A stretch of 64,000 bases of DNA from assembly GCA_041663665.1 (NCBI GenBank), contig JBAYMG010000003.1, positions 3,991 to 67,990 on the forward strand, read 5' to 3'. A program made the position numbers and the translations under genes. Every line of letters starts with the position of its first letter. Positions within the stretch are counted from its first letter, which is position 1. The DNA comes from Candidatus Omnitrophota bacterium (lineage in GTDB: Bacteria; Omnitrophota; Gorgyraeia; Gygaellales; Profunditerraquicolaceae). Below the pieces are notes generated by a model, which was not told where the DNA came from, did not search any database, and was given only the letters and a program-made list of their open reading frames with translations. Below are positions 22,947 through 42,669 of this stretch, one piece after another.

Positions 22947-24218
22947 ATGTTTATAATTTATAATTTAATATTTTTTATTTTTATGTTGGGGTATCTACCC
23001 ATTTATTTATTACGCGGTAAATTCCACCGTGGATTTGCCCGGCGTTTGGGGTTTCTACCTGATAACCTGAAATTGGATAATCCGATTTGGATTCATGCCG
23101 TAAGCGTTGGTGAGGCTATTGCGGTTAAAGGATTAGTTGCTGAATTAAGAAAAGCTTATCCGCAGAAAAGGCTGGTTATTTCTACTGTAACTGCTACGGG
23201 GAATAAACTTGCGGAAAGTTTAATAGCTGAGGGTGATTTTTTGACTTATTTGCCTTTAGATTTTAGTTTTCTCGTTAAACATGTTCTTAAACAGGTTAAT
23301 CCTTGCATGTTTATTATCGCTGAGACTGAAATTTGGCCTAATTTGATTACCTGCCTTTATAAGCAAAAAATACCAGTAATTACGGTTAACGGCAGGATTT
23401 CGGATAGTTCTTATTCCGGGTACCGGGCAATTAAATTTTTTATCCGGCCGATTCTAAATAAAATTACAAAATTTTGCGTACAATCAGGTACTGATGCGCA
23501 GCGTTTGCAAAATTTAGGGGTGGATAAAAATAAAATTCAGGTTACCGGGAATGTAAAGTTTGATATTAATTTAGAGGTAGTTTCGCAAATAGATGCATTA
23601 AGTTACCGCCAGAAACTTATGTTTGGTCAGGGAGATAAATTATTAATTTGTGGCAGTACGCATCCGAAAGAAGAAGAAATAATTTTTGAAGCTTACAAAC
23701 AGCTTTTAATAATTTTTCCTCAGATGAAACTTCTTATTGCCCCTCGTCATCCGGAGCGCAGTAAGGGTATTGCCAAGTTGGCGGTGGATAATGGTTTTAC
23801 GCCGGTTCTTATTTCAGATATACTTAACTTAAGCTTAGCCTCTATTAGCCGGCCAGTATTTATTTTAAATATAATCGGTGAGCTATTTAATTATTATTCT
23901 GCTGCAGATATTGTTTTTATTGGGGGTAGTTTTGTTAAAACCGGAGGGCATAATATTCTTGAACCGGCTAGTTTGAATAAGCCGGTCATTTTTGGTCCGC
24001 ATATGTATAATTTTCGGGACATCAGTGAATTATTTTTAAAAAATAAAGCTGCTTTCATGGTTTTTGATGCTGATGAATTGGCGGCAAAGATAAAAGAAAT
24101 TATTGAAAGCGATTCTTTAGTTCAAGGAATAGTTGCTCGGGCTAGGGAGTTAATTATTAAGAACCGGGGGGCAAACAAAAGGAACATTCAGGTTATCTGG
24201 GATCTAAATTTAATTTAA
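22947..24218 (+). CDS. waaA: 3-deoxy-D-manno-octulosonic acid (Kdo) transferase
   Basis: IWIHAVSVGEAIAVKGLVAELRKAYP matches the WaaA/KdtA N-terminal signature; 423 aa. Confidence 0.9.
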   Translation: MFIIYNLIFFIFMLGYLPIYLLRGKFHRGFARRLGFLPDNLKLDNPIWIHAVSVGEAIAVKGLVAELRKAYPQKRLVISTVTATGNKLAESLIAEGDFLTYLPLDFSFLVKHVLKQVNPCMFIIAETEIWPNLITCLYKQKIPVITVNGRISDSSYSGYRAIKFFIRPILNKITKFCVQSGTDAQRLQNLGVDKNKIQVTGNVKFDINLEVVSQIDALSYRQKLMFGQGDKLLICGSTHPKEEEIIFEAYKQLLIIFPQMKLLIAPRHPERSKGIAKLAVDNGFTPVLISDILNLSLASISRPVFILNIIGELFNYYSAADIVFIGGSFVKTGGHNILEPASLNKPVIFGPHMYNFRDISELFLKNKAAFMVFDADELAAKIKEIIESDSLVQGIVARARELIIKNRGANKRNIQVIWDLNLI

Positions 24219-25765: not shown

Positions 25766-25769
25766 CAAG

Positions 25770-25783
25770 TAATTTGCAAATTA
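25770..25783. promoter_or_regulatory. 14-bp perfect palindrome TAATTTGCAAATTA 9 nt upstream of the STAS-PilZ start codon
   Basis: Read directly; sits where an SD or operator would be expected. Confidence 0.3.
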
Positions 25784-25792
25784 GATCCTAAT

Positions 25793-26515
25793 ATGTTAGA
25801 GATAAAAATAAGGCAGCTGGGGAATATTGTTATTTTAGATTTAAGCGGACGCATAGACGTAGATTCGGCTAATTTAGTGGAAGTAGCCGGCCAATGTGTG
25901 TCTAATGGTTACATAGATATTCTTTGTAATTTTGAAGATATTCAGACTATCGATTATATGGGTATTTCGGTAGTGGTTATTGCTTATAAAGAGGTGGTTA
26001 ACCATCTGGGTAGAATGAAATTTATCAATATTCCGGCACACCTTAAGAGTGCTTTAGTAGTTTCCGGCATAGACAAGGTTATTGAAACTTATGCTTCCGA
26101 AGATATAGCCTTAAATAGTTTTAAGGAAGATAAAATTATTGAGAAAATTAAGAAAATGCAGCTGCGCCGCAGGTTTAAGCGCTTGCCCATTGACCTAAAG
26201 GTAGAATTAAAATCTAAACAAGATAATTCTTTATCCTGTCCGGAACTTGACATGCTTAACTTAAGCGCTATCGGCGCTTATATATTCGGGTGTAATAAGT
26301 TTAAACTGGGGGATGAAGTATTGCTTAAGATGAAGCTTGCTCCGCAACAGGACCAGCTCTGTTTAGAGGCAATCGTAGTTTGGATACCGGATAGGGCTGT
26401 TCAACCGCATCAGTATCCGGGAATCGGGGTAGAGTTTGTTAATCTATCTATAGTCAACCAGCAGAAATTGATCGCATTTATTGAACGTAATCTTTCTTTT
26501 ATGTCTTCGGATTAA
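25793..26515 (+). CDS. STAS (anti-sigma-factor antagonist-like) domain fused to a C-terminal PilZ c-di-GMP-binding domain
   Basis: N-terminus IVILDLSGRIDVDSANLVE...KFINIPAHLKSALVVSGIDKV (STAS fold). C-terminus has RRRFKR (RxxxR) and NLSAIG (D/NxSxxG) PilZ motifs. Confidence 0.65.
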   Translation: MLEIKIRQLGNIVILDLSGRIDVDSANLVEVAGQCVSNGYIDILCNFEDIQTIDYMGISVVVIAYKEVVNHLGRMKFINIPAHLKSALVVSGIDKVIETYASEDIALNSFKEDKIIEKIKKMQLRRRFKRLPIDLKVELKSKQDNSLSCPELDMLNLSAIGAYIFGCNKFKLGDEVLLKMKLAPQQDQLCLEAIVVWIPDRAVQPHQYPGIGVEFVNLSIVNQQKLIAFIERNLSFMSSD

Positions 26516-26594: not shown

Positions 26595-27689
26595 ATGTTT
26601 TGGTATACTTATTTTAAAGGGGGAATTCCGGTGGTTTCGCTAAAAGAGCACTTATGTAATTTGGTTACCGGCAAAACAAAAGGTTTGGTGGCTGGGCTTT
26701 TGAGGGGTTTTTTATTTGTGCTTTCTTTAATTTATGGTTTGATTGTAGTTATTTTGGCAGGGTTCTATAGGGCCAGGCCGGTTAAATTTAAAGCTAAAGT
26801 TATCAGTGTAGGTAATATTACCTTGGGGGGTACAGGTAAAACGACTTTTGTTGAGTATTTGGCTGGTAAATTAAATTTAGAAGGAAGGAAGATTGCAGTA
26901 TTAAGCCGCGGTTATAAAAGTAAAAAGCATGACGGCTTGCAAGCCAGGGGTGATGAGCCGGCTATGTTAGAAAAGAAATTGCCATTTGCTCTAGTGTTAG
27001 TTGATAAGAATAGGGTCAGGTCGGCTCTTAAGGCGACTAAAGATTATGCGGTAGATACCTTAATTCTTGATGACGGTTTGCAGCAGTGGCGGATATTTAA
27101 AGATTTAGAGATAGTGGCTATTGATGTCGGCAATGCTTTTGGAAATTCCCGTATACTTCCGGCTGGTTTCTTGAGGGAGCCGCTAAGTGCTTTAAAGCGT
27201 GCAGATGTCTTTCTGTTGACTCAAGGCTTTCTTGGGCAAGATGTAAATGAATTGACGGCTAAATTAAAACGCATAAATTCTCAAGCCCTAATTATTGAAT
27301 CCGTACATCAACCTGTGGGGTTTAGCCCCCTGGATAACCCGGATGAGCTGTTAAGTTTAGATTTCTTTAGAGGCAAAAGTGTAATGATATTTTCTGGTAT
27401 TGGCAATCCCCTGGGGTTTGAAAATAGCATTAGTTCATTGGGAGCCAATATTGCTAAAGCAATTAGATTTAGCGACCATCATGATTATACTATTGAGGAT
27501 GTCGATAAGCTTATTGTTGAAGCACAACGAAAGAAATTAGAAGCAGTTATCACAACCGAAAAGGATGCTGTTAAAATCAGGCAGTTAGGGATAAAGGATT
27601 CCGGCATATCGGTCTTAGGCATAGAGTTAAAGGTAATTAAAAATGAAGCCGAACTCGATCGTAGATTATTCAGCTTGTATTCTTTTTAG
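26595..27689 (+). CDS. lpxK: tetraacyldisaccharide 4'-kinase
   Basis: P-loop VGNITLGGTGKT; 364 aa. The in-frame GTG at 26631, with SD AAGGGGGAA 7 nt upstream, is a better start if the promoter at 26563-26591 is real. Confidence 0.88.
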   Translation: MFWYTYFKGGIPVVSLKEHLCNLVTGKTKGLVAGLLRGFLFVLSLIYGLIVVILAGFYRARPVKFKAKVISVGNITLGGTGKTTFVEYLAGKLNLEGRKIAVLSRGYKSKKHDGLQARGDEPAMLEKKLPFALVLVDKNRVRSALKATKDYAVDTLILDDGLQQWRIFKDLEIVAIDVGNAFGNSRILPAGFLREPLSALKRADVFLLTQGFLGQDVNELTAKLKRINSQALIIESVHQPVGFSPLDNPDELLSLDFFRGKSVMIFSGIGNPLGFENSISSLGANIAKAIRFSDHHDYTIEDVDKLIVEAQRKKLEAVITTEKDAVKIRQLGIKDSGISVLGIELKVIKNEAELDRRLFSLYSF

Positions 27690-29568
27690 GTTAGTAAGCT
27701 TTTTCACAGCTTACTTACCTTTAAATTTCAGTCTTTTTTTTGGCAGGAGGCTGGGTGATCTTATTTATCTATTTGATAGGAAACATCGCTTGATTGCCTA
27801 TACGAATATCCGGCACGCTTTAGCTGATAAAATTAATTGGCAGAGATGCAAAAAGATTACTCGTTCTGCTTACCAGTCTTTTGGCCAGAATCTTATGGAA
27901 ATTTCTTTCATCGGGCGTATAGATAAACAGTATCTTGAAAAATATATCCAAATTGAGAATAAAGATAACATCGATGCTGCTTTTAAGAGAGGTAAGGGGG
28001 TAATTTTCCTGGCGGTTCATGAAGGAGATTGGGAGCTTTCTAATATTATTTGTGCCAATTTAGGTTTTCCTTTTACTTTGTTTGTGCGCGACCAGGGGCT
28101 TCCCCGGCTTAATGATTTACTTAATTCATATCGGCTTAAACGGGGGGCAAAGATTATTCATAAAAAAGCCGGAGTACGCCAATTAATTGAAGTGCTTAAA
28201 AATAACCAGGCGATCGGGATGACTACCGACCAGGGCGGCAAGAATGGACAACTGGTTAGATTTTTTGGGCAAGATGCTTCAATGGCTGTGGGTGCTGTAA
28301 AGTTGGCATTAAAGTATGATTGTTCAATAATTCCGGTTTTTTATACGCGGATTAAAGGTCCTTATACTAAAGTATTTTTGGATCAAGTTTATACGGTTAC
28401 CAGAAGCGAAAACCCTGAGAATGATTTAAAGGATAATTTGCAGAGAATAATTAGTGTCTATGAAAATTATATCCGGAAATATCCTTATGAATATCTCTGG
28501 ACTTACAAGGTATGGAAGTACGGCAAGGATAAGGAAATCTTAATTCTTTCTGATGGAAAAACCGGCCATTTGCGTCAATCAGAAGGATTAGCTAAATTAA
28601 TTAACCAACAGTTGTCCAGCCGGGGCATAAAAACTAATTTGTTTATTAAAGAAGTAAAATTCGGCCGCGAGGCCTTAGTTTGGCTTCAAATAGCCAAAGC
28701 CATCGGCCGCATTGATTGTTTGCGCCATGCTTTAACTGATGAAAGCTGGCAAAGTTTAATGAGTTCTAAACCGGATTATATTATTTCTGCCGGAGGCTTG
28801 ATGAGTGTTCTAAATTATCTTTTAGCCCGGGAAAACCAGGCAAAATCAATTTGCTTAATGAAGCCGTCGAATATCAGCTTAAAAAAATTTAATTTAGTAA
28901 TTGTTCCGGAACACGACGGGAATTTTAAAAGAAAGAACGTCGTAATTACTGAAGGGGCGCTTAATTTAATTGACGCTGATTATTTAAATCAGAAACTAGA
29001 GAGAATAAGGCGCTCTGGCCTTATCAAAGCAGGTTTACTTAATCCTTGTATTGGGGTATTAATTGGAGGAGATAGTAAGAATTTTTCTCTCGATCAAAAG
29101 ATAATAACTAAGCTTGCTGTTCAAATTAAGAAATCTGCTGAAGAGTTAAATGCCAGCCTTTTGATTTCTACTTCACGTCGTACTTCTCCGGAAGTCCAGG
29201 AGCAGGTAAAAAATGAATTTGCCAATTATCCACGCTGCAAGTTGTTGGTTATTGCCAATGAGAATAACAATCCGGATGTTGTTGGAGGAATAATCGGATT
29301 AAGTAATATAATAATCAATTCTCCGGAAAGTATTTCCATGATTTCTGAAGCCGCGGCAGGAGAGAAATACGTTGTCGTATTTAAGGCTAGAGGCCTGAGT
29401 AGAAAGCATGAACGTTTTTTAAAAAAATTTCAAACCAAGAAGTATATCTATTTTAAACAGATTGAAGAATTAGCTGATTGTCTTAACTGGATATGGCAAA
29501 ATAAACCTCAAGTTAATTCTCCCCGGGATGATTTAAAAGTAATTGAGGGTTTAAATAAAATAATATGA
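27643..29568 (+). CDS. fusion: lipid A biosynthesis late acyltransferase (LpxL/HtrB family) + C-terminal ELM1-like (DUF1022) domain
   Basis: N-terminal ~300 aa: TM anchor, then LAVHEGDWELSN (H(X)4D/E-type acyltransferase motif) and the MTTDQGG region typical of Kdo2-lipid IVA acyltransferases. C-terminal ~340 aa starts ILILSDGKTGHLRQSEGLAKL, resembling the SDGkxGHenQ opening of the Mito_fiss_Elm1 family. 47-nt overlap with lpxK. Confidence 0.65.
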   Translation: MKPNSIVDYSACILFRLVSFFTAYLPLNFSLFFGRRLGDLIYLFDRKHRLIAYTNIRHALADKINWQRCKKITRSAYQSFGQNLMEISFIGRIDKQYLEKYIQIENKDNIDAAFKRGKGVIFLAVHEGDWELSNIICANLGFPFTLFVRDQGLPRLNDLLNSYRLKRGAKIIHKKAGVRQLIEVLKNNQAIGMTTDQGGKNGQLVRFFGQDASMAVGAVKLALKYDCSIIPVFYTRIKGPYTKVFLDQVYTVTRSENPENDLKDNLQRIISVYENYIRKYPYEYLWTYKVWKYGKDKEILILSDGKTGHLRQSEGLAKLINQQLSSRGIKTNLFIKEVKFGREALVWLQIAKAIGRIDCLRHALTDESWQSLMSSKPDYIISAGGLMSVLNYLLARENQAKSICLMKPSNISLKKFNLVIVPEHDGNFKRKNVVITEGALNLIDADYLNQKLERIRRSGLIKAGLLNPCIGVLIGGDSKNFSLDQKIITKLAVQIKKSAEELNASLLISTSRRTSPEVQEQVKNEFANYPRCKLLVIANENNNPDVVGGIIGLSNIIINSPESISMISEAAAGEKYVVVFKARGLSRKHERFLKKFQTKKYIYFKQIEELADCLNWIWQNKPQVNSPRDDLKVIEGLNKII

Positions 29569-31658
29569 AAATATTGCAGATATTGCCTGAACTTAATGTC
29601 GGAGGAGTTGAAACCGGGACTTTGGATTTATCCAAATATCTGGTTCGGCTGGGACATAAATCAGTAGTTGTTTCTGCCGGCGGGAGTTTGGTTAAAGAAT
29701 TAGAATCCGGAGGCGCTAAACATTATACCTTAGCAGTAAACAAGAAATCGATTGTTTCTATGTTCAAGTTGGTTCCGGAATTAGTTAAGATAATTAAAAA
29801 AGAAGAGATTGATATTGTGCATGCTCGTTCAAGGGTGCCGGCTTGGATCGCTTATTTTGCCTGTCGGCGGACCAAAGCAGTATTGATTACTACTTGCCAC
29901 GGTTATTATAAAAAACACTTTTTTGGTTTAGTCATGGGCTGGGCAAAAAGAGTAATTGCTATAAGCAATGTGATTGCCAGGCATATGATCGATGATTTTT
30001 CTGTTCCGCATGATCGTATTAAGCTTGTGCCGCGCAGCGTAGATTTAGAGAAATTTAAGTACCTTGACCCTAAAGAAAAAAGAAAGGAAGTTTTTAATGT
30101 CGGCATTATCGGCAGGATTACTCCACTCAAGGGACACTTGCATTTTATTAAGGCTATGGCGCATCTTTCCCGGGTTATTCCGCGCTTAAAGATTTGGATT
30201 GTCGGGGATGCTCCTGCTTCGAAGGAAGCGTATAAAGAAGAAGTCCAGGTTTTAGTCCGCAGGCTCGGGCTTTGGCATTGCACGCAGTTTTTGGGTACGC
30301 AGCGGGATATTCCTGGAATACTGGCGAATTTGGATTTAGTAGTTTTGTCGACTACAACCCATGAAGCATTCGGCCGGGTGGTGGTTGAGGCCCAGGCTGC
30401 TGGAGTACCGGTGGTAGCTACCAAGGTCGGAGGCGTAATTGATATTATTGAGGATGGTAAAAATGGGCTTCTTGTGCCTCCGGCAGATCACAAGAGTATG
30501 GCTGAAGCTGTGCTGCGGATATACAAGGATGTGCAATTAGCAAGAGAATTAGCTGAGAATGCTTATGCTAAGGTTAAAGAAAAGTATAATGTGGAATTAA
30601 TGGTTAAAAATACCCTGGATGTTTACCGGGATGCTTTAAGTAATTTTAAAATTCTAATCATTAAGCTTAGTTCTTTAGGGGATGTAATTCTAACTACCGC
30701 GGCGTTAAGGGCTATCCGGGAAAAATTTCCCCGGCCGAATTTTAAAATAAGCTTTTTAATTGGTGAAGAATCTAAGGATATACTTTTGAGGAGCCCTTAC
30801 ATTGATGAACTGTTAGTTTGTGACCTAAAGAATAAAGATAAAGGTTTATCCGGCTTATGGAACGTTGGGAATATTTTACGCAAGAAATATTTTGACATGG
30901 TCATCGACCTGCAGAATAGCCGGGCAAGCCATGTATTATCTTATTTAAGCGGTTCGATTAACCGGTATGGCTATGACAACAATAAATTTTCTTTTTTACT
31001 TAATCATACTATTAGAGATGACAAGTCGTTGATTGATCCGGTAACTCATCAATTTAGAATTTTAAAAATGCTCGGAATTGATCTTTTGAATAGCCGTCTT
31101 GAGCTTTGGCCGTCTATGGAAGATAGTAAAGCTATGGATGAGCTTTTGAACGCCCAGTGGGTAAGCCAGGCGCAAAAGATTGTTGGGATTAATATTAGTG
31201 CTTCTAAAAGGTGGAATACTAAAATTTGGCCGCTGGAATATCTAGTCTGTTTGTGCGAAGAATTAGGATTAAAAGATATACGTGTGGTAGTCACCGGTAC
31301 AGCTAGCGATATTTCTTTTGCTAACCGGTTGATTGGTTCAATAAAAAATACGAAGATTATCAATGTTTGTGGTAAAACCAGCATAAACGAGTTAGCGGCT
31401 TTAATTAGTAAATGTAACGTATTTATTTCTGCGGATTCTTCTCCGCTGCACGTTGCTTCTGCTGTTGGCACTGCTTTTGTTGCGTTGTTTGGCCCGACTG
31501 ATTACCGCCGGCATTTACCTCCCGGTAAAAATTGTGTTGTAATTAGCAAGAACCTGAATTGTAGCCCTTGTTATAAAACTAGCTGCCGGTCTAAGCGCTG
31601 TATGGCTGAGATTAAACCCAATGAAGTATTTGAAGCTGTGGTAAAATTGCTTAAATGA
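29565..31658 (+). CDS. bifunctional glycosyltransferase: N-terminal GT4 (GT-B, retaining) + C-terminal GT9 (heptosyltransferase-like) domains
   Basis: N-terminus MKILQILPELNVGGVETGTLDL...E(X)7E-type region VVEAQAAGVPVVATKVGG. C-terminus ILIIKLSSLGDVILTTAALRAIREKFP and ADSSPLHVASAVG (GT9 signatures). 697 aa. Confidence 0.8.
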   Translation: MKILQILPELNVGGVETGTLDLSKYLVRLGHKSVVVSAGGSLVKELESGGAKHYTLAVNKKSIVSMFKLVPELVKIIKKEEIDIVHARSRVPAWIAYFACRRTKAVLITTCHGYYKKHFFGLVMGWAKRVIAISNVIARHMIDDFSVPHDRIKLVPRSVDLEKFKYLDPKEKRKEVFNVGIIGRITPLKGHLHFIKAMAHLSRVIPRLKIWIVGDAPASKEAYKEEVQVLVRRLGLWHCTQFLGTQRDIPGILANLDLVVLSTTTHEAFGRVVVEAQAAGVPVVATKVGGVIDIIEDGKNGLLVPPADHKSMAEAVLRIYKDVQLARELAENAYAKVKEKYNVELMVKNTLDVYRDALSNFKILIIKLSSLGDVILTTAALRAIREKFPRPNFKISFLIGEESKDILLRSPYIDELLVCDLKNKDKGLSGLWNVGNILRKKYFDMVIDLQNSRASHVLSYLSGSINRYGYDNNKFSFLLNHTIRDDKSLIDPVTHQFRILKMLGIDLLNSRLELWPSMEDSKAMDELLNAQWVSQAQKIVGINISASKRWNTKIWPLEYLVCLCEELGLKDIRVVVTGTASDISFANRLIGSIKNTKIINVCGKTSINELAALISKCNVFISADSSPLHVASAVGTAFVALFGPTDYRRHLPPGKNCVVISKNLNCSPCYKTSCRSKRCMAEIKPNEVFEAVVKLLK

Positions 31659-31727: not shown

Positions 31728-32822
31728 GTGAATGTGCTTTTTATTGCTAATCATCTTAACGTTGGTGGAATATCCAGTTATCTGTTTACTTTATCTACCG
31801 GTTTAAAAGAAAATGGGCATAATGTTTATTTGGCTTCCAGCGGCGGAGAATTAGTTGAAAAGTTTGTTTTGTCGGGAATAAAACATATCCAGGTCCCCCT
31901 AAAGACAAAGAGCGAAATCAGCCCGAAAATTATTCTTAGTTTTTTAAAATTAAAAAAACTGATGCGGGTAAATAATATTGACCTGGTTCATTCCAATAGC
32001 CGGACTACTCAGGTGTTGGGTAATTTATTGAGCCGATCCAGGGGTGTTGTGCATATTTTCACTTGTCACGGTTTTTTTAAGCCGAAACTTTCACGCAGGC
32101 TTTTCCCATGTTGGGGAGAAGCTGTTATTGCTATCAGCCAAGAGGTAAAAGAGCATTTAATTTTCGATCTTAAATTACCTGAGTGTAAGATAAGTGTAAT
32201 AAATAATGGTATTGATGTTAAAAATTTCGGAGATTTTTCGCAAAGGGATAATTTACGTAAAAAATTAGGAGTTAATGACCAGTTTTTAGTCGGTATTATC
32301 GCCCGTTTATCTGATGTAAAAGGCCATATTTATCTTATTCGGGCAATGCCTGAAATTTTGAAAAGCTTTGCTCTGGTTAAATTATTAATTATCGGAGAGG
32401 GTAAGATGAAAACAACGCTAGTTAAGGAAGTTGATCGCTTAGGTATTAAGGATAGCGTTTTATTTATTGATCAGGCCAGCGAAACTAGGGACATGCTTTC
32501 AGCGATGGATATTTTTATTATGCCTTCATTGCAGGAGGGGTTGGGGCTTGCGCTTATGGAAGCAATGGCTCAAGGTTTGGCTGTTGTTGGTTCTCGTGTC
32601 GGAGGAATAAAGACCTTAATTCAGGATAAGGTTAATGGCTTATTAGTTAATCCGCAGGATTCCGCAATGCTGGCTGAAGCAATCATAACTTTACTTAAAG
32701 ACAGCCGGATGCGCCGTGATTTAGGATTGAATGCGCGTAAATTTATTATGGGTAATTTCTCTAACGAAAAAATGGTTGAAGGTACAGAACTAATTTATAA
32801 ACATTGTTTAAAAGATGGATAA
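31728..32822 (+). CDS. glycosyltransferase family 4
   Basis: MNVLFIANHLNVGGISSYLFTL...LMEAMAQGLAVVGSRVGG; 364 aa. Confidence 0.85.
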   Translation: MNVLFIANHLNVGGISSYLFTLSTGLKENGHNVYLASSGGELVEKFVLSGIKHIQVPLKTKSEISPKIILSFLKLKKLMRVNNIDLVHSNSRTTQVLGNLLSRSRGVVHIFTCHGFFKPKLSRRLFPCWGEAVIAISQEVKEHLIFDLKLPECKISVINNGIDVKNFGDFSQRDNLRKKLGVNDQFLVGIIARLSDVKGHIYLIRAMPEILKSFALVKLLIIGEGKMKTTLVKEVDRLGIKDSVLFIDQASETRDMLSAMDIFIMPSLQEGLGLALMEAMAQGLAVVGSRVGGIKTLIQDKVNGLLVNPQDSAMLAEAIITLLKDSRMRRDLGLNARKFIMGNFSNEKMVEGTELIYKHCLKDG

Positions 32823-33852
32823 AAGGCACAGTTATAAACGTATTTTAATATTTAACGTTAATTGGCTGGGGGATGTTTTATTTTCTACCGCAACCATAAG
32901 GAATATTCGCATGAACTATCCTGATAGTTATCTTGCCTGCATAATTCCTAGCCGTTGTTCTGCGATATTAAAAGGCAATCCCTATCTGGATGAAGTGATT
33001 CTCTTTGATGAGAAAGATAAACATCGGGGAGTGTTCGCCAAGCTTAATTTTGTCAATCTTCTTAAAAACAAAGAATTTGATGCTGTTTTTCTGTTACACC
33101 GCTCGTTTAGCCGGGCACTCATCTGTCGCTTGGCCGGTATTGTTAACCGCATCGGGCATATTACTAAGAAGCGCGCATTTCTTTTGACTAAGCGGATTGT
33201 TCCTCCGAAAGTTGATTCTCTGCATCGTATAGATTATTATCTGGATATAATCAAGAAGGATGGGCTGCGTGTTGTAGACCGGCACCTGGATTTCTTTTTT
33301 GCCGTTGAAGATGAAGAAGCTGTTGATAAGTTTTTAATTAAAAATTCAGTTTTCAAGGATAATTTTGTAATCGCGCTTAATCCCGGAGGAAATTGGCTGC
33401 CTAAACGCTGGCCTCGGGAATATTGGGCAGAATTGGCGGATAAATTAATTAGTCAGTTAAAAGCGAAAGTAATTGTTACCGGTAGTTCAGCTGATTTATT
33501 ATTGGTTAATCAGATTAAAGAGAATATGCGGGAGTTACCGTTAGTTGCTTGCGGGGTTTTTAATATAAAGCAACTGGGGGCATTAGCAAAAAAGGTTGAC
33601 CTTTTTATTACTGCCGATACCGGCCCATTACATATTGCTAATGCTGTGGGCGCTAAAAAAATAATTGCGATATTTGGGCCGACTGCCAAAGAGATTACCG
33701 GTCCGTATCCGCCTACGAATGTGATTATTTTACAAAAAAATACAGGGTGTTTGATACCCTGCTATAAGGTTGATTGTCAGGATAACCGTTGTATGAAGGC
33801 AGTTACTCCTGATGATGTTTTTGCTGAAGCCAGAAAAGTAATAAAAAAATGA
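32815..33852 (+). CDS. glycosyltransferase family 9 (LPS heptosyltransferase-like)
   Basis: ILIFNVNWLGDVLFSTATIRNIRMNYP, ADTGPLHIANAVG; 345 aa. Confidence 0.85.
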   Translation: MDKRHSYKRILIFNVNWLGDVLFSTATIRNIRMNYPDSYLACIIPSRCSAILKGNPYLDEVILFDEKDKHRGVFAKLNFVNLLKNKEFDAVFLLHRSFSRALICRLAGIVNRIGHITKKRAFLLTKRIVPPKVDSLHRIDYYLDIIKKDGLRVVDRHLDFFFAVEDEEAVDKFLIKNSVFKDNFVIALNPGGNWLPKRWPREYWAELADKLISQLKAKVIVTGSSADLLLVNQIKENMRELPLVACGVFNIKQLGALAKKVDLFITADTGPLHIANAVGAKKIIAIFGPTAKEITGPYPPTNVIILQKNTGCLIPCYKVDCQDNRCMKAVTPDDVFAEARKVIKK

Positions 33853-35855
33853 AGATTCTTTTTGTAACCTTAAGCAATATTGGGGATTGTATTTTGACTC
33901 TTCCGGTTTTAGATGTTTTGCGGGAAAAATACCCGCAGGCAAAAATTACCTGTCTTGTGCCGCCCCGGCCTAGCGAGATTTTTGTTAATAATCCGGTAGT
34001 TGATAGAGTGGTTGTATTTGATAAGCATGTTAAGTTAAAAGAAAAGATTAATTTATTCCTTTCATTAAATAAGGAAAAATTCGATTTAGTTGTCGATTTG
34101 CGGAACAGTTTTTTCGGTGCTTTCCTTGCGGCTAAAAAAAGAACTTCTCCTCTGCGCAGGATTCCTAAAAAGTTCAGGCATATGAAAGACCGGCATTTAT
34201 TTTGGGCTGAATTTTGTGATTATGTTTTGAAGAATAAATTAAATCGGTCTTTAGTGATTACTTCTGGCGATAGGGATTATATTGCGGGTATGCTTAAGGA
34301 GAATAATTTAGCTGATTGTGATAAATTGATCGTGGTTGCTCCTGGTTCACGGAGCCAGTCTAAGTGTTGGGACAAGCAAAATTTTAGCCAGCTCTGCCGT
34401 CGGCTAGTTAAGGAAGGTTTTGATTTGGTTTTAGTCGGTGATAAGGCCGATCAGTTTGCTTGTTCGTATGTGCAGAAATCCTGTCCGGAAGCTGTTAACC
34501 TTTGCGCTAGAACATCTATAAGCCAGTTGGCTGCTTTATTGAAAAAAGCAAAATTATTATTGACCAATGACAGCGCGGTGATGCACTTAGCAAGCTATTT
34601 GGATGTACCGGTTGCAGCAATATTCGGGCCAACCGATGAAGCCAAATACGGTCCATGGTCGAAAAAAAGCGTGGTGATTAAAAAAGATATTTTTTGTCGG
34701 CCTTGTCAGAAAGCGCAATGCCGTTTTCAAACTTTAGCTTGTTTGGCGGCAATCAAACCCGATGATGTGTTCTTGCAGATAAAGCCCTTACTTGAGGATA
34801 ACGGCCAAATAATCCTTGGAAATAATAAGCAGTACCGCAGAATTCTTATCAGCCGTACAGATCGCATGGGGGATGTTCTTTTATCAACTCCGGTTATTCA
34901 GGCCCTAAGGGAAAGTTTTCCCCAGGCTTATATTGCGATGATGGTTACTCCTTATGCTCGAGATATCGTCGAAGGTAACCCTTATTTGGATGAAGTTATC
35001 CTCTACGATAAAGACGGCAAACATAAAAGCTGGGTAGGGAGCCTTAAATTTGCCGGCAGATTAAAGAAGAAAAAATTTGACTTGGCGATTGTTTTGTATC
35101 CTAATAACCGCGTACATTTGATAACTTTTTTAGCCGGGATTAATCAACGTTTGGGTTATGATCGTAATTTTAAATTTTTACTTACAGATCAAATTAAGCA
35201 CACTAAACAATATGGGGAAAAGCATGAATCCGAGTATGCTTTAGACCTGGTTAGGTATTTAGGGGTTAAGCCTAAAGAAGTTTCGTTGTTTATGCCGATA
35301 AAGCAGGAGTCCGAGGAATGGGCTAATGCCTTGTTCAGAGAAGAAGGTATTAAGGGTACGGATAGATTATTAGTTATTCATCCGACTGCAAGCTGTGATT
35401 CAAGGATTTGGCCGGCTGAAAGGTATGCGCAAGTTGCTGAAAAGCTTATTCAGAAATATGGTTTTAAAGTTTGTATTGTTTCCGGCGGTAAGGATATTCA
35501 AAAAGCCAAAGCGGTGGTTAAAAACATGCGCAGTAAGGTGGTGGACCTAATTGGCAAGACTTCAATTAGCCAGGTGGCTAGCCTGTTAAAGAGATCACAA
35601 TTGTTTATTTCTACGGATTCCGGGCCCATGCACGTGGCAGTGGCTTTCGGTGTGCCGGTGGTTACGATTTTTGGCCGCAAACAACCAGGGCTTAGCCCGA
35701 AGCGCTGGGGGCCGCTGGGTAAACAAAGTAAATATCTTCATAAAGATGTGGGCTGCATTCAGTGCTTGGCGCATAATTGCAAAAAAGAGTTTGCCTGCCT
35801 TAAAGCAATCAGCGTTGATGATGTCGTTTTAGCCGTAGAATCAATTTTAAAGTAA
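33849..35855 (+). CDS. tandem double GT9 (two heptosyltransferase-like domains in one 668-aa polypeptide)
   Basis: Domain 1 ILFVTLSNIGDCILTLPVLDVLREKYP...NDSAVMHLAS. Domain 2 ILISRTDRMGDVLLSTPVIQALRESFP...TDSGPMHVAVAFG. Confidence 0.8.
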   Translation: MKILFVTLSNIGDCILTLPVLDVLREKYPQAKITCLVPPRPSEIFVNNPVVDRVVVFDKHVKLKEKINLFLSLNKEKFDLVVDLRNSFFGAFLAAKKRTSPLRRIPKKFRHMKDRHLFWAEFCDYVLKNKLNRSLVITSGDRDYIAGMLKENNLADCDKLIVVAPGSRSQSKCWDKQNFSQLCRRLVKEGFDLVLVGDKADQFACSYVQKSCPEAVNLCARTSISQLAALLKKAKLLLTNDSAVMHLASYLDVPVAAIFGPTDEAKYGPWSKKSVVIKKDIFCRPCQKAQCRFQTLACLAAIKPDDVFLQIKPLLEDNGQIILGNNKQYRRILISRTDRMGDVLLSTPVIQALRESFPQAYIAMMVTPYARDIVEGNPYLDEVILYDKDGKHKSWVGSLKFAGRLKKKKFDLAIVLYPNNRVHLITFLAGINQRLGYDRNFKFLLTDQIKHTKQYGEKHESEYALDLVRYLGVKPKEVSLFMPIKQESEEWANALFREEGIKGTDRLLVIHPTASCDSRIWPAERYAQVAEKLIQKYGFKVCIVSGGKDIQKAKAVVKNMRSKVVDLIGKTSISQVASLLKRSQLFISTDSGPMHVAVAFGVPVVTIFGRKQPGLSPKRWGPLGKQSKYLHKDVGCIQCLAHNCKKEFACLKAISVDDVVLAVESILK

Positions 35856-37015: not shown

Positions 37016-38029
37016 GTGAAAAATTTAAAAAATATTATTAATAAATTTAATCGAGCTAAGATTTTAGTTGTCGGCGACCTGATTCTTGATGAATATATTC
37101 GTGGTACAGTTGAGCGGATTTCTCCTGAAGCTCCGGTTCCCGTGCTTTGGGCCAGCAAGCGTACTTTTGTCCCCGGCGGTACAGCTAATGTTGCCAACAA
37201 TATCAATTCGTTGGGCGGAAAAGTTACCTTGTTGGGGGTAGCCGGCAATGACGCTAACGCAAAAATTTTATTTAGTGAGTTGGAAAAAAGAAAAATCAGC
37301 ACCCAGGGTATTTTTATTGAAAAAAACAGGCACACAACTGTAAAAACAAGGATTCTTGCCGGGCATCAGCAGGTGGTTAGGGTTGATTGGGAACATACAC
37401 ATGATTTAACCGGAGAGCTCAACACGAAAATTTTGAAATTTATTGAAAAGAATATTGATTCTTTTGATGCGATTATTATTGAAGATTACGGTAAAGGAGT
37501 AATTAATATTGCGTTACTTGAGAAATTAATTTTGCTAGCGCAGCTTTATCATAAAATTATTACTGTTGATCCTAAAGAAGAAAATTTCCGGTATTATCGT
37601 GGAGTAACTTCGATTACTCCCAATCGTAAAGAATTAGAGAATGCGGTTAGAAATCTTAAGGTCCAGGATACGGCCAATCGTTTTAAAATGAATACGGATA
37701 AATTGTTTACCGATAAAGATGTGGATTTAGCCGCGCGCGAAATTTTAGAGTATCTTAACCTGGATTCTATTCTGTTTACTTTGGGTGAGCAGGGAATGAA
37801 GTTGCTGGAAAACAACGGCCATCTGACACACATCCCGACGCAAGCTCAAGAAGTTTTCGATGTATCCGGTGCCGGGGATACTGTCATTAGCACTTTTACT
37901 CTGGCTCTTTGTTCGGGGGCCTCAAAATTAGAAGCAGCTTATATTGCGAATTTTGCCGCAGGTATTGTCGTCGGCAAGTCCGGAACGGCAGTTACGGATA
38001 CTCAGGAACTTTTAGAGAGGATAAAATAA
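37016..38029 (+). CDS. hldA: D-glycero-beta-D-manno-heptose 7-phosphate kinase (RfaE domain I, PfkB family), monofunctional
   Basis: ILVVGDLILDEYIRGTVERISPEAPVPVL and DVSGAGDTVIS (ribokinase-like anion hole). There is no fused adenylyltransferase domain. GTG start with SD AAGAGGA. Confidence 0.8.
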   Translation: MKNLKNIINKFNRAKILVVGDLILDEYIRGTVERISPEAPVPVLWASKRTFVPGGTANVANNINSLGGKVTLLGVAGNDANAKILFSELEKRKISTQGIFIEKNRHTTVKTRILAGHQQVVRVDWEHTHDLTGELNTKILKFIEKNIDSFDAIIIEDYGKGVINIALLEKLILLAQLYHKIITVDPKEENFRYYRGVTSITPNRKELENAVRNLKVQDTANRFKMNTDKLFTDKDVDLAAREILEYLNLDSILFTLGEQGMKLLENNGHLTHIPTQAQEVFDVSGAGDTVISTFTLALCSGASKLEAAYIANFAAGIVVGKSGTAVTDTQELLERIK

Positions 38030-38770
38030 ATGGATGTAATCGGAGTTATCCCTGCAAGGTATTCATCGACTAGGTTTGCGGGTAAGGTACTTGCGGATAT
38101 TATGGGTAAGCCAATGTTGCAGCATGTTTGGGAACGCGCCAGGCAATCACGCATGTTGGATGATTTGATTATCGCCTGTGATGACGAAGCTATCCTTAAA
38201 GCGGCAAAAAAATTCGGCGCTCATGCCGTGATGACATCTAAGGAGCATACTTGCGGAACAGACAGGATTAGTGAAGTGGTTAATCCTTTGGATGTTAAAG
38301 TTATTATTAATATCCAGGGTGATGAGCCATTAGTTCACCCGATGATGATTAATAGCGTTGCCCGGGCATTATTAGAAGATCCTTCTTTGAATATGGCTAC
38401 ACTGATGAGAAAAATTGAAGATTCAATGCAGGTATTTGATCCGAATGTTGTAAAAGTAGTGGTAGATAAAAATAATTTTGCTTTATATTTTTCGCGTGCC
38501 CCTATTCCGTTTCTTGCTCCGAATGCCGATATTGAACAGGTAACTTATTATAAGCATATCGGTCTTTACGGTTATACCAAGGATTTTCTTTTTACTTATA
38601 AAAATCTTCCTGCGTCGAATCTTGAGAAAACGGAAAAATTAGAACAGCTGCGCGTTTTATCTGAAGGTTTTAAAATAAAAGTAATTGAAACAACTTTTGA
38701 TACTGTCGGCGTGGATACGGTGCAGGATTTAGAAAAAGTTAAAGCACAATTGCAGAAGGGGATAAACTGA
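38030..38770 (+). CDS. kdsB: 3-deoxy-manno-octulosonate cytidylyltransferase (CMP-Kdo synthetase)
   Basis: MDVIGVIPARYSSTRFAGKVLADIMGKPMLQHV; 246 aa. Confidence 0.93.
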   Translation: MDVIGVIPARYSSTRFAGKVLADIMGKPMLQHVWERARQSRMLDDLIIACDDEAILKAAKKFGAHAVMTSKEHTCGTDRISEVVNPLDVKVIINIQGDEPLVHPMMINSVARALLEDPSLNMATLMRKIEDSMQVFDPNVVKVVVDKNNFALYFSRAPIPFLAPNADIEQVTYYKHIGLYGYTKDFLFTYKNLPASNLEKTEKLEQLRVLSEGFKIKVIETTFDTVGVDTVQDLEKVKAQLQKGIN

Positions 38771-39582
38771 TGCAGCAGGTTAATGTTAAGAATATAAAAT
38801 TTGGGGATAAATATCCGCTGGTACTTATTGCCGGGCCTTGTGCAATTGAAAGCCAGAGTTCTTGTTTAGCAGCAGCTAAACAGATTAAGGATATCGCCGC
38901 CGGCCAAAACGTGCCGTTTATATTTAAGTCTAGTTTTGATAAAGCTAACCGGCTTTCTCATGGTTCTTATCGCGGGCCGGGATTAAAAAAAGGATTAGCA
39001 ATCTTAAAAAAAGTAAAAAACCAGCTTAAAGTGCCTATTTTAAGTGATGTGCATTGTGCAAAAGATATGTCTGCAGCTGCGCAAGTTTTGGATATTATCC
39101 AGATACCGGCTTTTCTCTGCCGCCAGACCGATATTGTGCTCGCGGCTGCTTCAACCGGTAAGGTTGTAAATATTAAAAAAGGGCAATTTCTTGCGCCTTG
39201 GGATATTTTGCCGATAATTAAAAAAGTCGAATCTGCAGGCAATAAGCAAATTTTGATTACCGAGAGAGGGGCAAGTTTCGGTTATAATAATCTAGTTACT
39301 GATTTTCGTAGTCTAAAAATTATGCGCGATTTTGGTTATCCGGTAATTTATGATGCTACGCATAGCGTGCAACTTCCCGGAGGCAAGGGCAGTTGTTCCG
39401 GAGGACAGAGTGAATTCGTTGCCGGACTTTCCCGCGCGGCTGTGGCTTTTGGTTGTGATGGATTATTTTTAGAGGTGCATAATGACCCAAAGAATGCGCC
39501 TTGTGATGGAGCTAACATGATTAATTTTAAAGAATTAGAGGATCTGCTCAAGCAGATAAAAAAGATCAGGGCGGCGTTATGA
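38770..39582 (+). CDS. kdsA: 2-dehydro-3-deoxyphosphooctonate aldolase (Kdo-8-P synthase)
   Basis: LVLIAGPCAIES...KSSFDKANR; 270 aa. Confidence 0.95.
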   Translation: MQQVNVKNIKFGDKYPLVLIAGPCAIESQSSCLAAAKQIKDIAAGQNVPFIFKSSFDKANRLSHGSYRGPGLKKGLAILKKVKNQLKVPILSDVHCAKDMSAAAQVLDIIQIPAFLCRQTDIVLAAASTGKVVNIKKGQFLAPWDILPIIKKVESAGNKQILITERGASFGYNNLVTDFRSLKIMRDFGYPVIYDATHSVQLPGGKGSCSGGQSEFVAGLSRAAVAFGCDGLFLEVHNDPKNAPCDGANMINFKELEDLLKQIKKIRAAL

Positions 39583-40547
39583 AAATAAATGTGGCTAAAC
39601 GGGCAAAAGAAGTTTTTGATATTGAAGCTGATGCTATAATCCAGCTTAAAAGCCGGATAGGGAAAAATTTTATTCAGGCGATAGAATTAGTTCTTAAATG
39701 TAAAGGCAGGGTGGTAGTCAGCGGTATGGGTAAGACTGGAATTATCGCTCAGAAATTTTCTGCAACTTTAGCTTCTACCGGTACGCCTAGTTTATTTCTG
39801 CATACGGCTGAAGCTATCCATGGAGATTTAGGCAAGGTTACCGTTGACGATATCGTAATTATTCTTTCCAATAGTGGCTCAACCGCAGAGATGAAGCAGC
39901 TTTTGCCGATACTTAAAAAAATCGGTTCGCCAATAATCTCGCTTACCGGAAATATAAAATCAATTCTTGCTAAGTATAGCGATGTTGTGCTGGATGTTTC
40001 AGTAAAAAAAGAAGCTTGCCCGCTAGGTTTGGCTCCTACGGCTTCAACTACTGCTTCGCTGGCTATGGCTGATGCTTTAGCGGTATGCTTGTTGGAATGC
40101 AAAGGTTTTAAAGAAAAGGATTTTGCTTTTTTTCATCCGGGAGGAGCTTTGGGCCGCCGGTTGCTTTTGAGTGTTGAGGATATTATGCGCCGAGGGCAGG
40201 CCAATGCAATCGTTAGTGAAGATAAAAAAGTTTCGCAAGTTTTATGTGCGATTACCCGGGCTCGCGCCGGATCAGCGATAGTTGTGGATAAAAAAGGAAA
40301 AGTGAAAGGGATTTTTACTGACGGGGATTTGCGCAGGCATTTAGAAAGCGATGAAAATTTGCCGAGCCGCCGGATAACCGAAGTAATGACTAAAAATCCT
40401 ACGGTAGTTAAAAAAGATATGTTGGCTGCTGAGGCAATGCATATTATGCAGTCTAAAAAAATCGATGAAATTCCGGTAGTTGATAATAATTTTCACCCGC
40501 TGGGTTTATTGGATGTACAGGATTTACTTAAAGCAGGATTGGTGTAA
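39579..40547 (+). CDS. kdsD: arabinose-5-phosphate isomerase (SIS + tandem CBS)
   Basis: VVVSGMGKTGIIAQKFSATLASTGTPS (SIS) plus C-terminal CBS pair; 322 aa. Confidence 0.88.
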   Translation: MKINVAKRAKEVFDIEADAIIQLKSRIGKNFIQAIELVLKCKGRVVVSGMGKTGIIAQKFSATLASTGTPSLFLHTAEAIHGDLGKVTVDDIVIILSNSGSTAEMKQLLPILKKIGSPIISLTGNIKSILAKYSDVVLDVSVKKEACPLGLAPTASTTASLAMADALAVCLLECKGFKEKDFAFFHPGGALGRRLLLSVEDIMRRGQANAIVSEDKKVSQVLCAITRARAGSAIVVDKKGKVKGIFTDGDLRRHLESDENLPSRRITEVMTKNPTVVKKDMLAAEAMHIMQSKKIDEIPVVDNNFHPLGLLDVQDLLKAGLV

Positions 40548-40549
40548 AA

Positions 40550-41092
40550 ATGGATAAGCTAGCTATTGGCGAAGAATTGTGTGTGCGTTTTAAGAAAATT
40601 AAACTTCTCCTCTTGGATGTTGACGGAGTTCTAACCGATGGGAGGATAATTTATGATTCGCAGGGCAGAGATTCAAAATTTTTTGATGTGCATGATGGTT
40701 TGGGCGTTTTTGTTTTACATAAATCCGGAATTAAGACGATTTTGATTACAGCTAAAAGTTCAAAAACCATAAAGCCGCGTGCTCGCGATATGCATGTTGC
40801 TCAGGTCTTCGCCGATATTTTTCCAAAAACTGTTGTTTTGGGCAAAATTTTGATGAAATACAAAGTTTCATCGGATGAGGTTTGTTTTATTGGCGACGAT
40901 TTAGTGGACTTAGCGCTGATGCGAAAAATCGGTTTACCGATTGCAGTCGCTAATGCTTCCGCGCCGATTAAAGAAGCAGCTGTTTATGTTACTAGCCATT
41001 CCGGCGGACGCGGGGCAGTTAGGGAAGTTGCCGAGTTAATTCTTAAGTCACAGGACAAATGGAAAGATATCTTGCATTTTTATGAAGCATAA
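40550..41092 (+). CDS. kdsC: Kdo-8-phosphate phosphatase (HAD superfamily, subfamily IIIA)
   Basis: LLLLDVDGVLTDGRIIYDSQG...FIGDDLVDL; 180 aa. Confidence 0.85.
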   Translation: MDKLAIGEELCVRFKKIKLLLLDVDGVLTDGRIIYDSQGRDSKFFDVHDGLGVFVLHKSGIKTILITAKSSKTIKPRARDMHVAQVFADIFPKTVVLGKILMKYKVSSDEVCFIGDDLVDLALMRKIGLPIAVANASAPIKEAAVYVTSHSGGRGAVREVAELILKSQDKWKDILHFYEA

Positions 41093-41966
41093 AAAAATAG
41101 TTTTAGTTTTTACGTTTCTATTCCTTTTATCTTCCATTCTTTTAGCTGAAGAAAACAAAGAAGCAAAAGAGTCTACTCAACAGATTGGAGATTTTTCCCT
41201 TTCCGGGTTTGGAGATAAAGGGAAGAAGTCCTGGGATTTAGCCGGAAAATCTGCAGATATTTATAATGATGTAGTCAAGCTTAAAGAAGTAAAAGGCAAT
41301 CATTATGCACCGAAAGATAGTATTAATTTAACTGCCGATAATGGAGATTTTAACAAAAAAAGCGGCATGGTGCATTTACAGGATAATGTGGTGATTACTA
41401 CTTCAAGCGGCGCAAAGCTGACTACGGATTCTCTGGATTGGGATCGTAAGCAGCAAATCGTCAGTACTTTAGAAAAAGTTAATTTAAACCGGGCAGATAT
41501 GAATCTTTCCGGAGTTGGGGCAAAGGGGCAGACTGCCTTAAAACAAGTGGTATTAGAAAAAGATGTCCGATTGGATGTTGCGCCTTTTGATAAACAAAAA
41601 AATAAAAAAGAGAAGATTACTATTACCTGTGACGGACCGCTAGATGTGAATTATGAAAAAAATATTGCCATATTTAATAATAATGTTAAAGTAGAAAAAT
41701 CAGATTTAACTATTTATAGTGATAAGATGCAGGTCTATTTTTCTCCCAAGCAGGAAGAAGGTAAAGTCGTTAAGGAAGATGGCGTTACTTCAAGCTCGAT
41801 TAATAAAATTGTAGCTTTAGGGAATGTGCGTATCTTGCGTGGTGAGAACACAACTTATAGCCAGGAAGCAATCTATAATGCATTAGATAGAAGAATAACT
41901 TTAACCGGTAAGCCACAGATAGTTATTTACCAGACGGAGAATCTGAATGCGACTTTTGGAAACTAA
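41082..41966 (+). CDS. LptC/LptA-like (OstA-like beta-jellyroll) LPS transport protein, apparently an LptC-LptA fusion
   Basis: N-terminal TM anchor, then an LptC-like segment ([40 protein letters not shown]) and an LptA/OstA_N-like segment ([20 protein letters not shown]...[22 protein letters not shown]). It sits between kdsC and lptB as in the E. coli kdsD-kdsC-lptC-lptA-lptB order. Confidence 0.6.
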
Positions 41967-42669
41967 AGGGTTAGCTAAGTCTTACGATGGCCGAGCTGTG
42001 GTTAAGGGGGTCGATATAACGGTTAAGCGTGGGGAGATTGTCGGGCTCCTTGGGCCTAACGGTGCAGGCAAAACTACGACTTTTTACATGATTGTCGGTA
42101 TTGTTCCGCCGAATAACGGAACAATTGTTTTTGATAATCACGACATTACTAATTTGCCGATTCATGAGCGTGCGCGTTTTGGCATAGGCTATCTTGCGCA
42201 GGAAGCTTCAATCTTTCGTAAACTTACGGTTGAAGACAATATTACTGCCATTTTAGAGACTTTGCCTTTTTCCCGTGCGGAAAGAAAACGCAGGCTTGCT
42301 TCTTTGCTTGAAGAGTTAAACATTGCGCATCTGGCTAAAAATAAGGCTTACACTTTAAGCGGAGGAGAAAGAAGGCGGCTTGAGATTACTCGGGCCTTGG
42401 TAACTAATCCTTCTTTTATACTTTTAGATGAACCTTTTAGCGGTATTGATCCGATAGTGGTTAATGAGGCGCAGGAAATTATTAAAGAGTTAAAAGCAAA
42501 AGGGCTGGGTATCTTATTGACTGACCACAATGTACGTGAAACTTTAGCTATAACCGACCGGGCGTATTTGATTTCCGGTGGGGAAATTCTTATAGCCGGT
42601 ACGGCGCATGAACTGATTAACCACCCGCAGGCGCGCCAGGTTTATTTGGGTGAGAAATTTAAAATGTGA
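41947..42669 (+). CDS. lptB: LPS export ABC transporter ATP-binding protein
   Basis: Walker [10 protein letters not shown], signature [11 protein letters not shown], Walker [12 protein letters not shown]; 240 aa. Confidence 0.93.

Follow-up and report, generated by a model that had tools for sequence, protein, structure and literature searches.

The window, a 64,000-nucleotide stretch of contig JBAYMG010000003.1 (positions 3,991 to 67,990; assembly GCA_041663665.1) from a Candidatus Omnitrophota bacterium, contains a cluster of lipopolysaccharide (LPS) genes in which one open reading frame (ORF) joins an LpxL-type lipid A late acyltransferase to a domain of the ELM1 family. The phylum Omnitrophota branches deeply and consists of very small, uncultured bacteria. 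In Pfam searches, PF03279 (Lip_A_acyltrans) covered amino acids (aa) 17-292 of the product (profile positions 21-294 of 295; E value, 8.5e-42; 143.8 bits against a gathering score of 22.3), and PF06258 (Mito_fiss_Elm1) covered aa 308-602 from profile position 2 onward (E value, 3.5e-46; 158-160 bits against 27). The preliminary description of this DNA had proposed a two-domain ORF lying directly after lpxK and ahead of core glycosyltransferase (GT) genes, with a C-half of GT-B-like fold that opens with a conserved SDG-type string. These points were upheld: both families scored far over their gathering scores; the cited string, ILSDGKTGHLRQSEGLAKL, maps to aa 301-319; the C-half scores on PF06258 and has a predicted two-lobed GT-B structure; and the gene overlaps its neighbors on both sides, the 3' end of lpxK by 47 nucleotides and the downstream GT4::GT9 gene through an ATGA start/stop overlap at 29565.

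The fusion is genuine and not an artifact. An Omnitrophota protein from a metagenome-assembled genome (MAG), labeled "ELM1/GtrOC1 family putative glycosyltransferase" in NCBI, is 100% identical to it, and both domains are present in more than 120 clusters (90% identity level) that are 61-75% identical to the window protein. The start codon is supported by the N-terminus, which, like M1 itself, is invariant in 38 homologs.

The two domains of the fusion protein

In the N-terminal domain, the HX4E catalytic dyad (HEGDWE) lines up with HFGTWE of Acinetobacter baumannii LpxM, whose catalytic-residue mutant E127A is entry 5knk. The predicted fold is LpxM/PatA-like, with a membrane-anchoring N-terminal helix. 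The domain scored under every NCBIfam equivalog cut-off, the best match being NF006270 with 139 bits against 248, so that a specific LpxL, LpxM, or LpxP name is not justified.

The C-terminal domain matched PF06258 as its sole Pfam family, even at E<=10, and a two-lobed GT-B fold was predicted for it with high confidence, with predicted local distance difference test (pLDDT) values of 85-95 in the C-lobe. The characterized bacterial member of this family is A. baumannii A1S_2903, which was annotated as ELM1-like and is needed for core synthesis past Kdo2, Kdo being 3-deoxy-D-manno-oct-2-ulosonic acid (VanOtterloo et al., mBio 2024; PMC10936431). The purified protein, named KdoT (= GtrOC1), uses CMP-Kdo as the donor and adds Kdo to Kdo2-lipid IVA or Kdo2-lipid A, and lipid IVA is no substrate in vitro (VanOtterloo et al., JBC 2025; PMC12856342). 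GnaT (LpsB, a GT4 enzyme) acts right after KdoT, adding N-acetylglucosaminuronic acid (GlcNAcA), and a kdoT deletion is complemented by homologs from other Acinetobacter species and from Rickettsia rickettsii (PMC12856342). An SRRT motif is invariant in the KdoT family, and mutagenesis showed that full activity requires R180, at which a positive charge is needed (PMC12856342).

A BLASTP comparison of the C-terminal domain with KdoT gave 27% identity over 276 aa (E value, 6e-19), and the two have in common the motifs SDGKxGH, MKPS, PEHDG, GALN, GGxSK, TSRRT, and SxSMxxEA. The KdoT sequence was taken from A. baumannii chromosomes mis-filed within a plasmid collection (L074), and its residues D8, H13, H109, D110, and S178-R179-R180-T181 agree with the published numbering (PMC12856342). 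In the 38-sequence alignment, the residues D304, H309, H424, D425, S511, R512, and R513 of the fusion protein were all invariant, and the run T510-S511-R512-R513 was invariant as a whole. Many homologs also carry a Cys-rich insert (C-Q/D/N-G-C-x2-C, e.g., CQGCLWCL) in the ELM1 N-lobe (P0242, P0266, P0311, P0384, P0336, and P0353); this insert, possibly a metal site or a loop that contacts the membrane, does not occur in KdoT, and in the window protein it is degenerate (GRIDCLRHA, aa ~345-360, about 28675-28720).

Because plant ELM1 works as an adaptor that recruits a dynamin-related protein (cited in PMC10936431), and because the ELM1 domain is fused to several different partners in bacteria, the domain could be imagined as a catalytically inert scaffold tethering LpxL or LpxK to other LPS enzymes. 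The motifs SRRT, SDGxxGH, HD, and S..M..EA are, however, invariant among homologs of just 32-75% identity, the predicted GT-B fold is complete in both lobes, and KdoT is a demonstrated enzyme (PMC12856342); an inert role is thus very unlikely.

The LPS cluster and its conservation in Omnitrophota

The LPS genes of the window follow one another in the order waaA, greA, chagasin-like inhibitor, deaminase, STAS-PilZ, lpxK, lpxL::ELM1, GT4::GT9, GT4, GT9, and GT9::GT9, and then GSU2086-family, rfaE domain I kinase, kdsB, kdsA, kdsD, kdsC, lptC::lptA, and lptB (Table 1). In A. baumannii, lpxL lies directly upstream of lpsB. The GT4 half of the gene that follows the fusion (29565-30644) had A. baumannii LpsB/GnaT as its best match in a 7.3-Gb plasmid collection (35% identity, 99% coverage; E value, 3e-53), ahead of a second-best match at 2e-42 and a majority of the rest at 1e-29 or weaker. 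In the reverse search, LpsB matched this half with an E value of 9e-64, versus 2e-23 for the other GT4 of the window. The consecutive arrangement of LpxL, KdoT-like, and GnaT-like domains is the strongest contextual argument for a KdoT-type function of the ELM1 domain.

Table 1. Coordinates of the lpxL::ELM1 fusion gene, its domains and motifs, and the surrounding LPS genes in the window
Feature	Coordinates	Strand	Basis and remarks
waaA, canonical GT30 Kdo transferase, separate from the ELM1 domain	22947..24218	+	PF04413, E 8.8e-61
lpxK, tetraacyldisaccharide 4'-kinase	26595..27689	+	PF02606, E 1.5e-75; TIGR00682, 193 bits vs cut-off 92
lpxL::ELM1 fusion gene	27643..29568	+	641 aa, ATG start; ORF, PF03279, and PF06258
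LpxL/HtrB-type late acyltransferase domain	27643..28533	+	aa 1-297; hydrophobic N-terminal helix, aa ~9-33
HX4E catalytic dyad, H126...E131 (HEGDWE)	28018..28035	+	Invariant in 38 homologs; aligned with LpxM
ELM1/GtrOC1 (KdoT-like) GT-B glycosyltransferase domain	28534..29568	+	aa 298-641
SDGKTGH loop	28549..28569	+	aa 303-309; D304, H309 = KdoT D8, H13; D304, G308, H309 invariant
PEHD motif	28906..28917	+	aa 422-425; H424, D425 = KdoT H109, D110
SRRT motif	29173..29184	+	aa 511-514 = KdoT S178-T181; R513 = KdoT R180, predicted donor positioning
GT4::GT9 fusion	29565..31658	+	697 aa; Pfam; GT4 half LpsB/GnaT-like
GT4 glycosyltransferase	31728..32822	+	Pfam
GT9, heptosyltransferase family	32815..33852	+	TIGR02195, 140.7 bits vs cut-off 134.6
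GT9::GT9 double heptosyltransferase-family protein	33849..35855	+	668 aa; Pfam/NCBIfam
GSU2086-family protein	36033-36962		NF052581, 399 bits; weak deoxyhypusine-synthase-like similarity
rfaE domain I, D-glycero-beta-D-manno-heptose-7-phosphate kinase	37016..38029	+	TIGR02198, 366.7 bits vs cut-off 345
kdsB, kdsA, kdsD, kdsC (CMP-Kdo supply)	38030..41092	+	Pfam CTP_transf_3, DAHP_synth_1, SIS+CBS, HAD
lptC::lptA fusion (294 aa, 41082-41966), then lptB	41082..42669	+	Pfam/NCBIfam

The scan for related loci used one genome per species, with search patterns drawn from the LpxL half of this clade, and its results are accordingly biased toward the clade. It yielded 64 species loci with a full-length fusion (41-75% identity), all in Omnitrophota, including a few Third Party Annotation (TPA) assemblies labeled otherwise. 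At every one of these loci the fusion lay within the same LPS operon, with the consistent order waaA...lpxK-lpxL::ELM1-GT4::GT9-GT4-GT9-GT9::GT9-...-kdsB-kdsA. The TPA assemblies named "uncultured Planctomycetales" (L002, L004, L006, L032, L037, L044, L046, and L047) have an Omnitrophota-type cluster with 48-72% identity, and their label is probably wrong. Seymour et al. (2023) place three fusion carriers, UBA6253, UBA1562, and RBG_13_41_10, in the class Velamenicoccia, order Gygaellales (Koll11, GIF10, and UBA6249 in GTDB); these have small genomes of about 1.3-1.9 Mb.

A phmmer search with the C-terminal domain against 1.84 billion representatives (50% identity level) returned 2305 matches at E<=1e-3. 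The best 150 of these 2305 (32-46% identical) were mostly 630-660 aa long, with ELM1 at about aa 295-650, which indicates that the fusion is the dominant architecture among the nearest relatives. Few of the distant fusion clusters are named, and each named entry is from Omnitrophota or "bacterium Unc6". Other Omnitrophota carry the domain on different partners: LpxK::ELM1 proteins form at least 29 clusters (P0293, P0261, and P0418 among them; L075 10001-12136 and L076 3438-5543), with an ELM1 domain 39-43% identical to that of the window, and a GT9::ELM1 fusion was found in one representative (P0354). On the closed 1.55-Mb sequence CP070837.1 (GCA_020341815.1) the cluster reads waaA-CBS-Na/H exchanger-lpxK::ELM1-GT4::GT9-GT4-deacetylase-GT9x3-rfaE kinase-kdsB-kdsA-kdsD, and in another genome waaA::lpxK is followed by lpxL::ELM1. 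The ELM1 domain therefore occupies a constant position, with lpxK before it and the GnaT-like gene after it, and is fused to whichever gene is upstream.

Since LpxK or GT9 takes the place of LpxL as the fusion partner of the ELM1 domain in related lineages, the fusions probably came from the joining of adjacent, co-transcribed genes in small or streamlined genomes. Given such an origin, the fusion indicates co-function in the lipid A/inner-core pathway and is not proof of substrate channeling or of an obligatory LpxL-KdoT complex. Further LPS fusions in Omnitrophota include WaaA::LpxK (about 750-830 aa) and a CCA-adding/poly(A) polymerase joined to LpxK (879-895 aa) (L078 10001-12418; P0435 and P0437). 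The GT4::GT9 and GT9::GT9 fusions are kept across the 64 loci, and the double GT9 is split into separate genes in CP070837.1.

Several other genes of the cluster are of note in their own right. The interval between waaA/greA and lpxK (24912-26515) encodes a deaminase of the cytidine/dCMP type and a STAS-PilZ protein, preceded by a chagasin-family peptidase inhibitor (I42). The deaminase gene upstream of lpxK is duplicated in several relatives, and the STAS-PilZ gene is kept at the same position in many loci; its place next to LPS genes hints at regulation linked to cyclic di-GMP. The GSU2086-family gene is likewise kept at its place in the LPS cluster, after GT9::GT9 and before the heptose kinase gene. 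Elsewhere in the window, a Sua5/YrdC domain is fused to a low-molecular-weight phosphotyrosine phosphatase (2296-3357; 353 aa), a Macro domain is fused to NUDIX (12971-13906; 311 aa), and a 575-aa ORF (47140-48867) had no Pfam match and a sub-threshold NCBIfam match to UshA-like (seleno)protein and SoxB-type metallophosphoesterases. On an lpxI-containing contig (L068 12678-15371), an RtcB RNA ligase gene is split by an intein with a LAGLIDADG domain and adjoins archease.

Predicted function of the ELM1 domain

The fusion protein is reasonably likely to be a bifunctional LpxL/KdoT-like enzyme that acylates Kdo2-lipid A and begins the extension of the inner core, as its domains and motifs suggest. 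It would work at the cytoplasmic face of the inner membrane on Kdo2-lipid IVA or Kdo2-lipid A. The N-terminal domain, an LpxL/LpxM-type secondary acyltransferase anchored via its hydrophobic helix, would add an acyl chain by means of the HX4E dyad, with acyl-acyl carrier protein as the presumed donor. The C-terminal domain would take a nucleotide-activated acidic sugar, for which CMP-Kdo is the best guess, and attach it to the Kdo2 region, itself the product of the separate WaaA, with the SRRT arginines positioning the donor. In the next gene, which is translationally coupled, the LpsB/GnaT-like GT4 domain would then add the following sugar, and the GT9 heptosyltransferase-family domains would extend the core. 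The analysis established the identities of the domains, their catalytic and positioning motifs and their folds, the place of the gene in the operon, and the conservation of the fusion. Kdo transfer is predicted by homology to KdoT; which sugar is donated, where it is attached, and whether acylation precedes or follows glycosylation are inferred.

The preliminary description had regarded the bacterial function of the ELM1 family as unknown, a statement that the two KdoT papers (mBio 2024 and JBC 2025) have made outdated. Its suggestion that the domain acts on lipid A or Kdo has held, in that KdoT modifies Kdo2-lipid IVA and Kdo2-lipid A and the window domain has the KdoT motifs. A role of the ELM1 domain as a replacement for WaaA was ruled out by the canonical waaA gene, whose product matched the NCBIfam lipid IV(A) Kdo transferase models at an E value of 6e-108, yet under the equivalog cut-offs.

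Several observations weigh against a bifunctional LpxL/KdoT-like enzyme. KdoT is not inactivated by a single Ala at D8, H13, H109, or D110 (PMC12856342), so that the conserved D304, H309, H424, and D425 are weak mechanistic evidence. The C-terminal domain is ~45 aa longer than KdoT and just 27% identical to it; donor and acceptor specificity are not readable from its sequence. The acyl chain and position of the N-terminal domain are not assignable either, given its scores in the equivalog searches. In the LpxK::ELM1 clusters of CP070837.1 and one similar locus, lpxL was not found, so the pairing of ELM1 with LpxL is not obligatory. In A. baumannii, moreover, the O5 of KdoI, which is the usual heptose I site, is occupied by KdoIII. 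The window cluster encodes a heptose-7-phosphate kinase as well as four GT9 domains, which implies that the core is built differently here, and the sugar added by the ELM1 domain, be it Kdo or another, may go to a different site than in KdoT.

In keeping with the last point, the architecture could serve a different sugar, the ELM1 GT-B domain adding a hexuronic acid, a hexosamine, or a heptose, or adding Kdo at a non-KdoT position. The low identity to KdoT, the heptose-pathway and GT9 genes that are missing from A. baumannii, and the need for a positive charge at KdoT R180, which could suit any anionic donor, are all compatible with this alternative. It is nevertheless unlikely: the sole member of the family with a defined biochemistry uses CMP-Kdo, and a homolog as distant as that of Rickettsia complements its loss (PMC12856342); the SRRT motif and the pairing of KdoT-like and GnaT-like genes are conserved; and kdsA, kdsB, kdsC, and kdsD lie in the same cluster.

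The preliminary description had also pointed out that lpxB is missing from the window and had raised the possibility that the ELM1 domain stands in for it. The first point was confirmed: Pfam found no PF02684 match among the scanned ORFs of the window, and tblastn, phmmer, and hmmsearch found no lpxB there. The queries were the LpxB sequences of E. coli and of L079, from which a two-sequence LpxB hidden Markov model (HMM) was also built. With these LpxB searches, lpxB was not found in the 10-kb flanks of the window, in the 64 fusion loci, or after lpxI in three Omnitrophota contigs with the order bamA-skp-lpxD-lpxC::fabZ-lpxA-lpxI. The searches covered ~1.25 Mb, corresponding to two or three neighborhoods per genome, and absence from such a sample is weak evidence.

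As a nonorthologous replacement for LpxB, the ELM1 domain would complete a waaA-lpxK-lpxL::ELM1 set holding all membrane steps of the Raetz pathway. LpxB and the ELM1 domain are both inverting GT-B transferases on lipid substrates, and the LpxK::ELM1 fusions would link consecutive steps if ELM1 were LpxB-like, so that the missing lpxB genes could be read in its favor. However, ELM1 homologs and LpxB coexist in Acinetobacter and Rickettsia. The C-terminal domain had no match to PF02684 at E<=10, the LpxB HMM and phmmer picked up no ELM1 domain in the ~1.25 Mb of loci, and LpxB was absent from the closest folds of the domain in the structure comparison. KdoT is inactive on lipid IVA (PMC12856342), and in the KEGG Orthology (KO) table of Seymour et al. 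(2023), as far as that source is accessible, K00748 (lpxB) is listed in three of three Omnitrophota genomes, one of them a 92.7%-complete MAG of the same class (Velamenicoccia), together with lpxA, lpxK, waaA, and lpxL, and with lpxI in two. The LpxB-substitute idea is therefore disfavored and appears extremely unlikely.

The lpxI-containing clusters have features of their own. The lpxC::fabZ fusion encodes 438 aa (L066 7875-9191; L068 7876-9192), and in both of these clusters the genes after lpxI encode a radical SAM protein and, before it, a small protein with CBM48. On a 160-kb contig (L079; JGI 3300012949), lpxC, fabZ, lpxI, lpxB, msbA, waaA::lpxK, kdsBADC, a stand-alone lpxL, and lptC/A/B/FG form one complete cluster with a canonical lpxB, in which the ELM1 domain was not found; this cluster was not used as evidence on Omnitrophota.

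Significance and comparison with known systems

Both domain families were known, and the protein already bears a name in NCBI and JGI annotation; the new element is the fusion architecture. In the collection of papers searched, none dealt with an lpxL::ELM1 fusion or with Omnitrophota LPS, and LPS is not a topic in the main text of Seymour et al. (2023). The function of bacterial ELM1-like proteins was undefined until 2024-2025, and functional data are limited to A. baumannii and the complementing homologs from other Acinetobacter and Rickettsia rickettsii. The occurrence of an ELM1 domain in the lipid A/core operon of a deep-branching, uncultured phylum, joined to lipid A enzymes and with a GnaT-like gene behind it, gives independent support to the KdoT assignment. 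It also suggests that extending the Kdo region without WaaA is a widespread and old trait.

A broader and more tentative proposal, which is plausible but somewhat short of probable, is that Omnitrophota have, as an ancestral trait shared across the phylum, a KdoT-GnaT "split Kdo" inner-core module, which would have been welded to lipid A assembly as LpxL::KdoT, LpxK::KdoT, GT9::KdoT, and GnaT-like::GT9 proteins. The module has so far been shown only in Acinetobacter, with the addition of a complementing Rickettsia homolog (PMC12856342). If the proposal is true, one polypeptide would carry out both secondary acylation and addition of the third Kdo, and the fusions would be natural Rosetta-stone evidence for bacterial ELM1 function. 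The protein could also offer a compact two-activity enzyme for in vitro reconstitution of LPS inner-core assembly. Nothing known of the Raetz pathway is overturned.

Among known systems, LpxL/LpxM (HtrB/MsbB), represented by the A. baumannii LpxM structure 5KN7, correspond to the N-terminal domain, and the window protein differs from them by its C-terminal glycosyltransferase domain. The Kdo transferases WaaA (GT30) and WaaZ (GT73) belong to families distinct from that of the ELM1 domain. LpxB (GT19) resembles the predicted enzyme in being an inverting GT-B transferase that acts on a lipid A precursor at the membrane, and the fusion gene adjoins lpxK; LpxB has, however, no detectable sequence similarity to the ELM1 domain and is not among its closest folds, and it uses UDP-diacylglucosamine and lipid X, whereas KdoT, the characterized ELM1 member, uses CMP-Kdo and Kdo2-lipid A. 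Plant ELM1, a mitochondrial fission adaptor, is of the same family, PF06258, and its function as a eukaryotic adaptor is not relevant here; it is not known to act as a glycosyltransferase.

KdoT is the closest counterpart, although the differences are several. KdoT is a stand-alone protein of 296 aa, whereas the domain in the window has ~344 aa and is fused behind LpxL, and the stand-alone architecture of ~300 aa typical of the KdoT family is replaced in its relatives by fusions to LpxK or GT9. KdoT comes from Proteobacteria, whereas the window protein, whose activity is a predicted one, comes from a candidate phylum, and the window cluster carries heptosyltransferase-family genes, which Acinetobacter lacks. 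The two proteins nevertheless share the Pfam family PF06258, the GT-B fold, and the SDGKxGH, PEHDG, and TSRRT motifs at matching positions, and both are accompanied by a separate WaaA and an LpsB/GnaT-like GT4 partner in a core-oligosaccharide locus.

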